A DNA stretch of 63,231 nucleotides, the filler included, from Stramenopiles sp. TOSAG23-2 (Eukaryota), in the NCBI GenBank assembly GCA_900128395.1. It is 10 parts of 10 records of this genome, joined end to end, with 100 filler letters (N's around TTAATTAATTAA, not from the genome) between each part and the next. Parts side by side here need not be neighbours in the genome. Positions count along the whole stretch, not along the records: positions 15,133 to 22,590 come from LT650316.1; 9 more parts are not named here. One strand, 5' to 3'. A program made the translations under genes and the position numbers. Numbering within the stretch: position 1 is the stretch's first letter; each line of letters begins with the position of its first letter. Of this stretch, positions 15,490 through 22,104 are shown piece after piece. The notes under the pieces are model-generated. The model saw only the letters and a program-made list of their open reading frames with translations. It did not search any database and had not been told where the DNA came from.

Positions 15490-18400
15490 ATGTCGACAAA
15501 ACACAACCAACACCATCACCATCACCATCACCATCACCATCGTCGAATTGAATGTGCTGCATTATTCTCATATGCAGGGAGTGAAGAAAGTATATCTATT
15601 GCGTGCGGTGAAATTGTACACTCAAAAATAGACCCACTAAACGCAGACGATGGATGGATATATATAGAGAAAGAAGATGAAACTAACGGATTTGTACCAG
15701 CAACCTATGTTGAAGCTACAGAAGATGGAAAATGGATTGTAGGCCGAGTCTTGTATGATTATGAAGGTGTATCATTAGGTACCGTTTGCGTAAAACGGGA
15801 ACAAATTATATTAGTAAATATCACGACGCTAGAGAAGGACTGGGTTGCTATCAAACGCCCAGAGTGCAAAGGTGGAGCAAAAGGGCACATACCAAAGACG
15901 TATGTAAAGATAATAAGTAAGGTAAAAAAGGAAGAAGACGACAAAGTGAGCAATGTTAAAAAAATTCAAGAACATGAAAAGACAAAAATTTATAGACGTA
16001 GAAAAAGTACGGCAAGATATAGTATTATAAAAAATAATATAAATCAAGTATTGTTGGATACTGATGTAATAATTTGCAAAGCTCTATATAATTTTGACTT
16101 AGGTGCGATTGATGACAGTTATTTAAATGACCCGAATGAGCCTGATCTTATACCTTTAACAGCTGGTGAAATTGTTCAAACTACACGTAAAGAATATAAA
16201 AAGACAACAGAATCTTGGATTTTTATAACAAAATGGAAAGACAATATTATGAAGGATGAGGGATTTGTACCACGATCATATTTGGAACAAACAACCGTCA
16301 ATAATAGCATTAAAACTAACGAATCTCCAAAAAAAGAAGTGTCTACCTCGACACCCGTAATGAAAAATAGCAATGGAAACCCAGAAAAAAACAATACGGA
16401 TATAGCTAATGATACACCAGATAAAGGTGATTTTGAAAAACGGAAATCTTATTTATTGGATGGCCTTCCAAAGCGGAATCGAAGCAGCAGTAAATCTGAA
16501 CCAAGAATAGTGACGAAGCAAAAGCGGCCAAGCAAAAGCGTCATGGATTTGTTATCTGATACTGAAGAAGCTTCCAATTATGCAAGCCGGTCAAGCCGGT
16601 CAAGCCTTGCAAGAACATCAAGTTTTTCAAGAACATCCACTCTTTTGAGTAGCCGAACTAACAGTATTATTTCATCTGATTCGTTATCATCAAGAACAAG
16701 TAGCATTAGTTCCTCTCGTGGTCGTCGCAGTCGTCGATTTAGCACTGATGATGATACAGCAAAACAGGAAAGAGTATATCGATATGTAAATAGCAAGCGG
16801 AGAAAATCACGTTTTGCAGCACGCAGAACAGAGGTAAAATCTGTTATATTGGATGAGACAACGATCAATACTGCAAATACTGCCAGTTTAGACAAATGGT
16901 ATACACCAAAAGTAGGACGAAGAGTTCAAGTAATCGTGAACCGTGCCAAACGTAAGCAAGCATCTGGTATTATCAAAAAAGTTGGAATTGAAAATACATT
17001 TAAAGTACAATTCGATCGTGAATGCAAAATTGATAAACAAATTGTAAAGGAAATAGATAATGTACCTAGACAAGATATTATTTCCTCTAGTTGGGCTAGA
17101 TTTAGTGGTAATGTCCCTCCATCCTTTCTGTCTTGTATGTCTGGTGGTGGAGCTGGCGGGGCGGATCGACCTGTACGGACTGTGAGAGACGTACCATTTA
17201 TGTCAGCATTAGCTAGAAGTGCAAAAGAACAAGGAAAGGAAGTAAGTGATATTGATCTCCAAGGTATTTTTCAAGCTTTTAGTTATAAGCGTTACCAACC
17301 AAATCAGATTATATTCAAAGAGGGCAGCGCAGGTGAGGAAATATACATCATATTGACGGGTAAAATATCTATAAAAACAAGCGGCAAAGAAATCAATACA
17401 TTGTCGAGTGGTGCGTGGTTTGGTGAAATAGCACTGTTTCAACGGAGCAGCCGGACGGCTGATTGTATTTCGATTGGTCACTCATGTCTCTTATTTTTGC
17501 GTAAGAATGACTTCAGGAAGCTAGAGATGGAATACGACTGGTTGAGAGGTGCTATGACAGCATTGACCGGCCAGCAAACAATAAAAATTTTAGGGCAAGT
17601 CGATTTTTTCGCCAATTTATCATCTCAACTTATTAAACGTTTAGCAGGCCTTTTTGTATATGCAAGCTTCGATCAGGGAAAAGTAATTGTCAATGAAGGT
17701 GAGACAGGAGAACATTTTTTTATATTGGTTCACGGTACATGTGATGTTAGCATCGAACGTCATGGCACATCAACTACCATTCATACCCTAGAAGCAGTAA
17801 ATCATTTTGGAGAAATAGCACTTGTTGAAAAAATCAATCGTACGGCAACTGTAACTGCTGCAAGCGATGTGACTTTGCTAGTCATATCAGCATCTAAATT
17901 TGAGAATTTTCTGACTCTTGCGCCTGCGACATTACGGCAGAAAATTCGAGATCGGATTGATTCAACGAAATCAGGGATGGTGAGAAACATTCCATTTTTC
18001 AAAGATATACAAGATAAATTGCTTACCAATTTAGCCTCAATGTTCAAACTAATAAATTATGAGAAAGGCTCGATTATATTCCAAGAAGGAGATAGAGGAA
18101 CCGAATTTTATGTCATAATGGAAGGGGAGTGTCTTGTTACTTCAATGAACAATGGATTATTAGCAACATTAAAAGCGGGCGATTTCTTTGGTGATTTGGC
18201 GTTGCTAAGGCAATCGAAACGTACAGCGACAATTAAATGTAAAACTTTTTGTCGTTTATTAGTCCTGAAGGCTTCTGAGTTTACAAGATTCTTGTCTATC
18301 GCACCGGAGCTAAAGCAAAAAATCAACGCCCATGTCCAACAAATTTCGAGAGAATCCGTTTTAGGCTCTCCCGGTTATCTCGAACAGGGCGAAAGCGGAA

Positions 18401-21400: not shown

Positions 21401-22104
21401 TAACGCCATATGGTTGTATTTCCACAGGTGTTGATATGGGTATGCTGGAAATTGTTACCGAATCTAATACAACGGCAAATATACAAAAAGTTTTGGGCTC
21501 GATGGGGGCATTTAGAAATAAAAGTTTATTAGCATGGTTGAAAAATAAAAATCCAGATGAATTAGATTCTAATGGTAACTTTAAAAAGTCTTCGATTGTT
21601 GTTGACAATTTCATACGGTCGTGTGCTGGTTATTGCGTTGCATCATACGTACTTGGTTTAGGCGATAGACATGCAGATAATATAATGATGAAAGAAAATG
21701 GAAAACTATTTCATATTGATTTTGGACATTTCCTGGGAAACTTCAAAACAAAGTTAGGATTTAAACGCGAACGCACTCCTTTTGTATTTACACCTGAAAT
21801 GGCTGAAGTGATGGGTGGGGAAAAGGATGAAAGATATGAACAGTTTCAACGTCATTGTGGCCAGGGATTCAACATATTGCGTAAAAATGCAAGTTCACTG
21901 ATTATTATGATGAGACTGATGATACCAGCTGGAATGCCAGAATTGCAAAACGAAGCTGATATTGAGTATTTGGTTGATAAACTTTGTTTACATAAAAACG
22001 ATGATGATGCTGCGACATTAATGAAGAAAGAAATAAAAAAATGCCTCTCAGATACATATCGTAGAATTGATAATTTTATTCATAACGTGAAGACTGGGTT
22101 GTAG
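15490..22104 (+). CDS. Class I-like phosphatidylinositol 3-kinase, 2204 aa: poly-His, SH3x3, cNMP-binding x3, RBD-like, SH3, C2, helical, kinase
   Basis: Kinase motifs [43 protein letters not shown]; helical [10 protein letters not shown]; SH3 ALF.Y..W..G.VP.TYV; three FG(E/D).AL....RTA cassettes; single uninterrupted ORF. Confidence 0.95.
   Translation: [2204 protein letters not shown]

Follow-up and report, generated by a model that had tools for sequence, protein, structure and literature searches.

A class-I-like PI3K carrying putative cyclic-nucleotide sensors and SH3 domains in cis in Stramenopiles sp. TOSAG23-2

To our knowledge, phosphoinositide 3-kinase (PI3K) signalling is understood almost wholly from animals and Dictyostelium. 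In these organisms adaptors, Ras and G-beta-gamma exert control on the catalytic subunit in trans, and cross-talk with cyclic nucleotides is indirect. For the cGMP-dependent protein kinase PKG and for Epac, it is established that cyclic-nucleotide-binding (CNB) domains control the catalytic domain of their own chain. Here we describe an open reading frame (ORF) at 15490–22104 (+) in a 63,231-nucleotide stretch of DNA from Stramenopiles sp. TOSAG23-2 (GenBank assembly GCA_900128395.1), hereafter the window, that plausibly encodes a class-I-like PI3K whose chain also holds cyclic-nucleotide sensors and SH3 scaffolds. We refer to its product as P0001, other P-numbers being database proteins. Our preferred reading, to which we assign a probability of roughly 0.6, is that P0001 is a class-I-like PI3K catalytic subunit regulated in cis, in which SH3 domains, a small beta-barrel and three CNB domains replace the N-terminal adaptor-binding region and a cyclic nucleoside monophosphate (cNMP) releases restraint on the enzyme.

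The ORF occupies a single frame of 2204 amino acids (aa) from an ATG start to a TAG stop with no internal stop or frame break, as an earlier note on this DNA had claimed and as translation of the window confirms; an open frame of 6.6 kb at the GC content found around it (32–38%) cannot be a chance occurrence. From N to C terminus the protein carries a poly-His run, three SH3 domains, a Ser/Arg linker, a small beta-barrel, three cNMP-binding domains, a Ras-binding domain (RBD), a further SH3 domain, and C2, helical and kinase domains. Pfam was run twice, on the whole protein and then on ten segments separately. The whole-protein scores are 200.5 bits for cNMP_binding (three stretches), 190.3 for PI3_PI4_kinase, 163.2 for PI3Ka, 56.4 for SH3_9 (cut-off 30), 41.5 for SH3_2 (cut-off 21.8) and 31.4 for PI3K_C2, with PI3K_rbd at 18.0, under its cut-off of 22. 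The architecture proposed in the earlier note, including its RBD-like, C2 and helical parts, is thus largely what Pfam returns, with the RBD marginal and each SH3 domain sub-threshold when taken singly; the coordinates proposed for the first three SH3 domains, the three cNMP domains and the fourth SH3 block agree within a few codons with the segment scan, and the poly-His run (15511–15540, aa 8–17, with a similar run in P0003) and the Ser/Arg linker (aa ~370–445) are both visible in the translation.

The three CNB domains are contiguous, at 17245–17604 (CNB1, aa 586–705), 17605–17979 (CNB2, aa 706–830) and 17980–18354 (CNB3, aa 831–955), and in the segment scan their PF00027 matches (aa ~600–679, 726–808 and 855–935) score 72.3, 72.3 and 74.5 bits, where the cut-off is 27.5. 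The phosphate-binding cassette of CNB domains is defined by Gly-Glu followed by Arg-(Thr/Ser)-Ala, and selectivity for cAMP or cGMP is not readable from Arg-Thr alone. The cassettes read FGEIAL...RTAD in CNB1, FGEIAL...RTAT in CNB2 and FGDLAL...RTAT in CNB3, the last with Glu replaced by Asp; all three domains named in the earlier note keep Gly-Glu/Asp...Arg-Thr-Ala, and all lie over the Pfam cut-off.

A structure model of aa 460–1300 (841 residues; 11-row alignment; predicted local distance difference test [pLDDT] 67.0, predicted template modelling score [pTM] 0.41) contains the three CNB domains, with pLDDT of ~80 over model residues 110–495, together with a five-strand barrel at aa ~472–532 (model residues 19–73, pLDDT ~77–83), a beta-beta-alpha-beta-beta-alpha-beta unit at the RBD and a five-strand unit at the fourth SH3 domain. 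When this regulatory model was searched with Foldseek, the Plasmodium PKG regulatory region came first (E 3.7e-26), followed by PKA-R, PKG and Epac (Epac2, E 9.1e-19). VIA-align matched model residues 230–375, which include CNB2, to the CNB-B domain of cGMP-bound PKG II (5bv6_A; Z 20.1, root-mean-square deviation [rmsd] 1.9 over 145 residues) and model residues 374–502, which include CNB3, to 4ev0_D (Z 19.1), with 4d7s_A at Z 19.6; CNB1 also has fold matches. The VIA-align list for this large model was filled by CNB matches, and it therefore barely probes the RBD, the fourth SH3 domain and the small barrel.

The CNB domains are 63–71% identical to those of P0003, compared with 26–45% for the linkers, and 40–49% identical to those of P0004, compared with 5–16% for the linkers. 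Identity so far above that of the linkers indicates that the CNB module is under purifying selection and that, judged by these comparisons, it is constrained like the other globular domains. An alternative explanation is that P0001 is a genuine PI3K in which the CNB domains are no cyclic-nucleotide switch at all, being instead a structural, dimerisation, docking or other-ligand module, with control exerted through Ras, SH3 partners or phosphorylation of the linkers. Consistent with this, several members of the family have lost the Arg of the cassette, there are CNB folds that make no use of cAMP (trypanosome PKA-R and the KCNH CNB-homology domain 6syg), and four R-R-x-S motifs in the linkers are common to P0001 and P0003. 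However, all three cassettes are canonical in P0001 and its four closest relatives, making five of the 11 aligned rows (P0001, P0003, P0004, P0005 and P0288), each domain scores 72–75 bits against 27.5, and relative to the linkers conservation of the CNB domains equals that of the catalytic core. We therefore regard a module that does not sense nucleotides as unlikely, while still a serious alternative, and continue with the CNB domains as putative sensors.

The first two SH3 domains, at 15559–15714 (SH3-1, aa 24–75) and 15742–15915 (SH3-2, aa 85–142), form a tandem pair. In the segment scan the SH3_9 matches at aa 24–75, 87–140, 213–266 and 1206–1260 score 25.5, 19.2, 17.4 and 18.1 bits, each alone being less than the gathering score of 30 that the whole-protein SH3_9 match passes, as the whole-protein SH3_2 match passes its own. 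An AlphaFold2 model of aa 1–280 (7-row alignment, pLDDT 73.2, pTM 0.48) shows SH3-1 and SH3-2 as a packed pair at pLDDT ~90, and its best solved match is the tandem SH3 of STAC1 (6b25; E 4.3e-06, TM(target) 0.77, rmsd 2.9 over 124 columns); STAC tandem SH3 matches range from 0.69 to 0.77 in TM(target), and other tandem-SH3 proteins (Sorbin, p47phox, Grb2 and Crk) are among the 22 matches at E≤0.001. SH3-3 (16126–16287, aa 213–266; SH3_2 and SH3_9 matches) and SH3-4 (19105–19269, aa 1206–1260), which is inserted between the RBD and C2, are indicated by weak Pfam matches and by five-strand models at pLDDT ~75–85 (~77–87 for SH3-3 and ~72–83 for SH3-4). SH3-4 is 74% identical to its counterpart in P0003 and 39% identical to that in P0004, and SH3 scores in homologues can be far higher, as in P0287 (SH3_9, 118.6 bits) and P0288 (SH3_1, 111.3 bits). 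The protein has two PxxP motifs in all, and the SH3 domains therefore probably bind other proteins.

Between SH3-3 and CNB1 lie a low-complexity Ser/Arg-rich linker (16294–16893, aa 269–468), which is 45% identical to that of P0003 with 37 gaps, and a small five-strand, SH3/Tudor-like beta-barrel (16903–17085, aa 472–532) that has no Pfam match at E≤0.1 in the segment scan and is conserved, the block at aa 469–545 being 74%, 43% and 32% identical to P0003, P0004 and P0005 respectively. Four R-R-x-S/T motifs in linkers, at 15997–16008, 16732–16743, 16798–16809 and 19408–19419 (aa 170, 415, 437 and 1307), are common to P0001 and P0003; they are of basophilic-kinase type, and phosphorylation may provide a second input. 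One of these, RSRRFS, fits R-x-R-x-x-S as well. The RBD-like segment (18682–18930, aa 1065–1147) rises in the segment scan to 22.8 bits for PF00794, barely over the cut-off of 22, and the same domain scores higher in homologues (P0302, 35.6; P0289, 29.8; P0291, 27.4). A sequence search of the RBD/SH3-4 segment against the PDB returned two chance-level interferon-gamma matches (E 0.58) and nothing else.

The catalytic part begins with a PI3K-type C2 domain whose Pfam-matched portion is at 20068–20304 (aa 1527–1605; PF00792, 34.8 bits in the segment scan); alignments to p110-alpha begin at aa 1526, and a conserved block upstream of the Pfam match places the true start of C2 probably near aa 1406. 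It continues with the helical (PIK) domain at 20467–20988 (aa 1660–1833; PF00613, 163.2 bits) and the lipid-kinase domain, which extends from 21274 to 22101 (aa 1929–2204; PF00454, 190.3 bits, matched at aa 1929–2153), so that the RBD-C2-helical-kinase order is kept. The kinase domain is intact, as had been proposed: K1932, the catalytic loop GDRHADN (2058–2064) and DFG (2077–2079) are all present, invariant in five of five aligned proteins, and align to p110-delta. A 24-residue stretch at the activation loop (DFG and basic loop, 2077–2098) is nearly letter-for-letter that of p110-delta and is basic, of class I type. A basic activation loop sets the use of PI(4,5)P2.

When the helical and kinase domains were compared with the PDB, the best 60 sequences were all class I p110 isoforms, with scores of 383.6 bits for p110 gamma, 355.6 for beta, ~351 for alpha and 347.7 for delta. 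Over the last 165 residues the order is p110-delta (157.3 bits), p110-beta (154.8), p110-gamma (~150), the class II enzyme PI3KC2-alpha (135.5) and p110-alpha (133.1). The whole-protein Pfam scan has no match to the adaptor-binding domain PF02192 at E≤0.1; there is also no PX match and no C-terminal PX/C2 extension, the protein ending at aa 2204, 51 residues past the Pfam kinase match. The proposed class I type thus holds for domain order, p110 similarity and the delta-like loop; no adaptor-binding domain is found, and in the C-terminal lobe PI3KC2-alpha scores amid the class I isoforms. By organisation and similarity the enzyme is best described as class-I-like and as a probable member of a class I/II group within which the two classes are not separated. 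This agrees with Philippon et al. 2015 (PMC4617754), in which sequences from the bikont lineages SAR (stramenopiles, alveolates and rhizarians), Excavata and Haptophyta form a single class I/II group.

The same observations could be read as a cNMP-regulated enzyme that is class II-like and makes PI3P or PI(3,4)P2 on endocytic membranes, in place of phosphatidylinositol (3,4,5)-trisphosphate (PIP3) at the plasma membrane. This would fit the position of PI3KC2-alpha, above p110-alpha although below delta, beta and gamma, in the C-terminal lobe, the single bikont group in PMC4617754, and the adaptor-binding domain that was not found. It fits less well with a C terminus that has no PX or C2 extension, with 60 class I p110 sequences at the head of the PDB comparison, and with an activation loop that is nearly that of p110-delta, the link from loop to substrate being general background. 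We consider a class II-like product quite unlikely and retain the class-I-like assignment.

A whole-length search identified P0002 (99% identity, 2200 aa), P0003 (66%, 2191 aa) and P0004 (41%, 2109 aa) with the same Pfam set, as well as P0005 (2628 aa) and P0006 (2114 aa), again with this set, and P0008, a WW-CNB-GAF-PI3K form; PF00027 and PF00454 are both present in six of the 12 proteins that this search found at E≤0.001. Five full-length proteins are collinear in every block, including the junction of CNB3 with the RBD and the SH3 domain between RBD and C2, and the collinear architecture extends at lower identity to P0005, P0006, P0287, P0288, P0292 and P0302. Members of the family lie on contigs of 351–466 kb, one of them from a named thraustochytrid.

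The ORF is present in 21 sequencing runs of nine studies by word index, and 12 of these runs are recorded as RNA. Four marine RNA-library runs from four studies (X1, X2, X8 and X9) were aligned as Logan contigs, which report presence only, and parts of the ORF without cover in a single run carry no evidential weight. The RNA pieces are 179–1042 nucleotides (nt) long with 97–100% identity and fall in SH3-3, the barrel, CNB1/CNB2, CNB3, the CNB3-RBD linker, the RBD, SH3-4, C2, the helical domain and the kinase domain. No joints are seen in these contigs, and the CNB1/CNB2, CNB3/linker, linker/RBD, RBD/SH3-4 and SH3-4/C2-linker boundaries are all crossed. Cover at 18619–22104 is complete in the poly(A) run X1 (14 of 14 bins), compared with six of 13 bins at 15382–18618, and in the cDNA run X9 cover runs from 19366 onward only; this 3′-biased cover is the pattern expected of mRNA. 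Contigs from X2, X8 and X9 end at 22118–22122, shortly past the stop codon, after which the letters differ. RNA continuity over 17190–21200, which had been suggested as a check, is thus seen in part: domain boundaries are crossed without joints, and no contig runs from the CNB region to the kinase.

Length differences within the ORF are in frame at four of five places (18154 and 18155, together +12; 19635, −3; 19641, −3). The 12 additional nucleotides inside CNB3 fall where P0003 has four extra residues, and a loss of three nucleotides in the linker before C2 falls where P0002 is one residue short; these in-frame variants are natural allelic or sister-species variation. In the AT-rich contig end at 22354–22590, the summed depth in marine RNA runs is 97–871, compared with mostly less than 10 in the ORF, and there are many loose ends; this end probably consists of repetitive or low-complexity sequence that other loci or organisms also carry.

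These data also bear on the possibility that the long ORF arose from a chimeric assembly, or that a CNB/SH3 gene reads through into a PI3K gene. In favour of this, the 7458-bp contig is a short one from a fragmented assembly joined with spacers, the RNA contigs leave the CNB-to-kinase stretch unspanned, and there are short gene calls among close relatives, namely P0016 (98% identity, 273 aa) and P0014 (81%, 404 aa). However, the start of P0016 is an internal Met and its divergence is confined to its last 16 residues, P0014 starts inside the helical domain, and both look like gene models cut short and not like split genes. Independent proteins from 66% to ~26% identity, on contigs of up to 466 kb, have the domains in the same order, with the CNB3-RBD junction and the SH3 domain between RBD and C2 included, the 6.6 kb have no stop or frame break, and five domain boundaries are crossed by RNA contigs without joints. 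A chimeric join, which the earlier note had listed among the observations that would count against it, was looked for in the RNA contigs and none was seen, and there are collinear homologues at 66%, 41% and lower identity; we judge a chimera or read-through to be very improbable. The gene is real, conserved and, as its presence in RNA libraries indicates, expressed.

The helical and kinase region was searched against proteins of 1212–3857 aa, and 120 of 576 matches were listed. Among these 120 long PI3Ks, 24 have PF00027 and 11 of the 24 also have SH3; among the 120 listed matches shorter than 1212 aa none has PF00027. Phmmer maps made with single-domain queries lacked the sensitivity to pick up distant CNB and SH3 domains, and Pfam scans of ten homologues were used instead; in these, between one and four CNB stretches precede the RBD, C2, helical and kinase domains. 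A representative search with aa 460–1300 returned 39381 proteins at E≤0.001, 185 of them at E≤1e-30, and a PI3K kinase domain in none of the 150 best matches by phmmer, these being generic multi-CNB proteins; the family's full-length members did not appear, and the search gives no census. The closest named kinase cores among the matches listed are from Hondaea (47%) and from Achlya, Ectocarpus and Triparma (39–41%). Together with the tree described next and the presence in marine RNA libraries, they indicate with moderate confidence that the gene belongs to a stramenopile-related marine protist. In the ESM Atlas the nearest clusters are generic PI3Ks at 0.77–0.82, under the level that the Atlas treats as evidence, and they give no indication of taxon.

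A quick maximum-likelihood tree (LG+G4; support from the Shimodaira–Hasegawa-like approximate likelihood-ratio test [SH-aLRT] only; root arbitrary) was built from the helical and kinase region with 104 rows. Any row that had an organism name or carried an additional domain was kept, together with every sixth plain unnamed row of the 228 usable. It leaves out P0002, which is near-identical to P0001, and P0284–P0286, whose matched span is over the limit, and it has no class II or III references. The SH3- and CNB-bearing PI3Ks form one clade of 13 rows (SH-aLRT 99) that takes in P0291 of Hondaea fermentalgiana. This clade is nested in a larger group of 50 rows (support 99), the named members of which include Tetrahymena, Lagenidium, Triparma, Ectocarpus, Bigelowiella and a cercozoan, that is, stramenopiles, alveolates and rhizarians, and opisthokont and amoebozoan rows are elsewhere in the tree. 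The kinase phylogeny that the earlier note had proposed thus answers one part of its question, the SH3+CNB forms being a single clade, and on the matter of class the tree, having no class II or III references, does not speak. Other CNB-bearing PI3Ks occur in three further places (P0328, P0370 and P0379; a 10-row GAF/CNB/WW group; and P0391 with P0008), and from this distribution either the fusion is old and was followed by losses, or it has arisen repeatedly.

Further modules are found on the same PI3K core. GAF, another cyclic-nucleotide-binding fold, WW and PH domains occur in P0008, P0080, P0081, P0086, P0358, P0387 and P0391; in P0027, P0056, P0059, P0322 and P0334; and in P0284–P0286, P0393 and others, the PH rows being from named oomycetes. 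This suggests that fusion of sensor modules to this kinase is a wider habit in related lineages. One member of the SH3+CNB clade, P0302 (2078 aa, SH3+CNB+RBD+PI3K), is labelled as the chytrid Batrachochytrium salamandrivorans and yet lies deep in the clade with marine sequences. Fungi are reported, in PMC4617754, to be without class I/II PI3Ks, and for this reason we distrust the label, which may reflect contamination or misassignment.

An origin in Naegleria or another heterolobosean, suggested by GC content and the lack of introns, was given up in view of the tree and of the marine RNA libraries in which the sequence is found. One of the nearest PI3K clusters in the ESM Atlas (55 members, score 0.82) is 53% viral, most commonly Nucleocytoviricota, and some giant viruses may encode PI3K-like proteins, which we note as a lead only. 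A giant-virus origin of the ORF was considered in view of this cluster and of the AT-rich, intron-free and densely coding DNA; it is unlikely, since family members are on contigs of 351–466 kb including that of a thraustochytrid and there are cellular-type genes on other contigs of the window.

We found no description of a CNB-PI3K fusion in the literature, in a search that covers few subscription journals and so leaves absence in print unproven, and the available parts of PMC4617754, PMC3823935 and PMC4374526 contain no mention of cNMP domains on PI3Ks. The architecture is that of a small conserved family present in public databases under automatic names and seemingly unstudied. The earlier note had known of no described protein with this architecture, and we too found no paper on one; the protein is nonetheless not unique, belonging to a conserved family that includes two Hondaea fermentalgiana proteins.

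We propose the following mechanism for P0001. Through its SH3 domains the enzyme would attach to proline-rich partners, such as those of the actin or endocytic machinery, and the CNB module would keep the RBD-C2-helical-kinase core less active or less accessible to membrane. Occupation of the CNB cassettes by cAMP or cGMP would then free the core, much as happens in PKG, PKA-R and Epac, such that a rise in cyclic nucleotide would lead directly to synthesis of 3-phosphoinositides, most likely PI(3,4,5)P3. Ligand binding, the direction of regulation and the lipid product are here predicted by analogy, as is a possible cellular role, for example in phagocytosis or chemotaxis; direct control of lipid-kinase output by cNMP is, we infer, the best reading. 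A prediction of a complex between the helical and kinase domains (aa 1656–2204) and the CNB module (aa 586–955) gave 0.00 against a mark of 0.34; it left our own alignment unused and had no controls, and it is no evidence either way.

Several observations weigh against this interpretation. Nothing computed here shows cNMP binding or an effect of cNMP on the kinase. The Arg of the CNB1 cassette is lost in most rows of the sister subclade in the 11-row alignment, and that of CNB3 is lost in three of the 11 (P0006, P0302 and P0289) and kept in eight; the CNB module can thus persist without canonical binding sites, and not all members of the family sense nucleotides. CNB folds can also take other ligands, and the trypanosome PKA-R structures in the Foldseek list are described as cAMP-independent and nucleoside-bound. 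Class I and class II are not separated, and the product could be PI3P or PI(3,4)P2, and the RBD match is marginal in both the whole-protein (18.0 bits) and the segment (22.8 bits) scan against its cut-off of 22. As to the gene itself, there is one +1 insertion at 18316 in a single low-depth contig (depth 3.3 of 6.2), no individual RNA contig reaches from the CNB region to the kinase, and RNA libraries can contain DNA.

A broader proposal is that cAMP or cGMP on the CNB domains directly switches on PIP3 synthesis, the second messengers being wired in series in one chain, and that this PI3K lineage has swapped separate adaptors for interchangeable modules in cis (CNB, GAF, WW, PH and SH3), yielding a modular family of 'sensor-PI3Ks', expressed in the open ocean, that plausibly link the sensing of prey or chemicals to signalling at the phagocytic cup or in motility. 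We advance this tentatively, as a possibility falling somewhat short of an even chance. If it is true, the three CNB domains upstream of the RBD would constitute a direct converter of cyclic nucleotide into phosphoinositide signals in a conserved family. The family would also offer a natural test of how a PI3K core is autoinhibited by unrelated modules, a possible template for chemically gated PI3K tools, and a lead into the signalling of abundant uncultured marine grazers. Culturable relatives (Hondaea and other thraustochytrids) carry family members, and the hypothesis is therefore within reach of experiment.

The ORF is alone on its 7458-bp contig (15133–22590), which is bounded by artificial spacers of 44 N + TTAATTAATTAA + 44 N at 15033–15132 upstream and 22591–22690 downstream. 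The same spacer occurs at 7475–7574, 30139–30238, 37685–37784, 45221–45320, 52757–52856, 60280–60379 and 61756–61855, and the pieces between spacers are of descending length (7458, 7458, 7448, 7446, 7436, 7436 and 7423 bp, then shorter ones). The window looks like contigs of a fragmented assembly joined by length, and gene neighbourhood across the spacers therefore carries no meaning for the PI3K ORF. Rfam has no RNA family on the ORF contig or across the whole window. A motif, GAGTGTAAAA, found directly after the stop codon and again at 22378, was dropped from consideration, as its two matches in the window were equalled by two of 100 shuffles.

Other contigs of the window carry several long ORFs, all on the minus strand. 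A 488-aa ORF at 13049–14515 (−) has a strong match to the Kdo-transferase N-terminal domain (PF04413, 154.8 bits). This is out of the ordinary for the genome of a heterotrophic protist, and the ORF could stem from bacterial contamination of the assembly or be a transferred gene. Intron-free ORFs encode a villin-like protein with six gelsolin repeats and a headpiece (57304–59880, −), an ankyrin-repeat protein of 1466 aa (37729–42129, −), a TIG-domain protein of 2148 aa (22927–29373, −) and a Kelch+TIG protein of 1502 aa (47411–51919, −).

Compared with known systems, P0001 resembles mammalian p110 gamma, delta, beta and alpha in its RBD-C2-helical-kinase order, its catalytic Lys, DRHxxN and DFG motifs, its delta-like loop and the lack of a C-terminal PX or C2 domain. 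It differs from them in having no adaptor-binding domain, in ~1050 extra N-terminal residues with three SH3 domains, the barrel and three CNB domains, and in the SH3 domain inserted between RBD and C2, and it implies no partner of p85 or p101 type. Dictyostelid and other class-I-like protist PI3Ks (P0298, P0311, P0313 and others) likewise have long N-terminal regions and an RBD-C2-helical-kinase core in which no adaptor-binding domain is recognised, and are 42–44% identical over the helical and kinase domains; unlike P0001, they are without CNB or SH3 domains and are placed in the tree with Amoebozoa and opisthokont rows.

The regulatory region finds its best structural matches in PKG, which in apicomplexans has four tandem CNB domains, and in Epac, and it shares with them the placement of tandem CNB domains N-terminal to a catalytic domain in the same chain. 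In P0001, however, the catalytic part is a lipid kinase of PI3K/PI4K fold and not a protein kinase or guanine-nucleotide exchange factor, and no autoinhibitory pseudosubstrate was identified. The nearest named counterparts are two Hondaea fermentalgiana proteins whose names are automatic annotations and of which we found no study. P0291 (putative PI3K) has three CNB stretches, RBD, C2, helical and kinase domains and belongs to the same 13-row clade; it differs in beginning mid-CNB (profile positions 44–86 at residues 7–49), in having no SH3 domain and in a non-canonical CNB2 cassette, and its model is probably cut at the N-terminus. P0391 ('Phosphatidylinositol 3-kinase 3') represents a second CNB-PI3K design, with WW, CNB and GAF domains followed by C2, helical and kinase domains.

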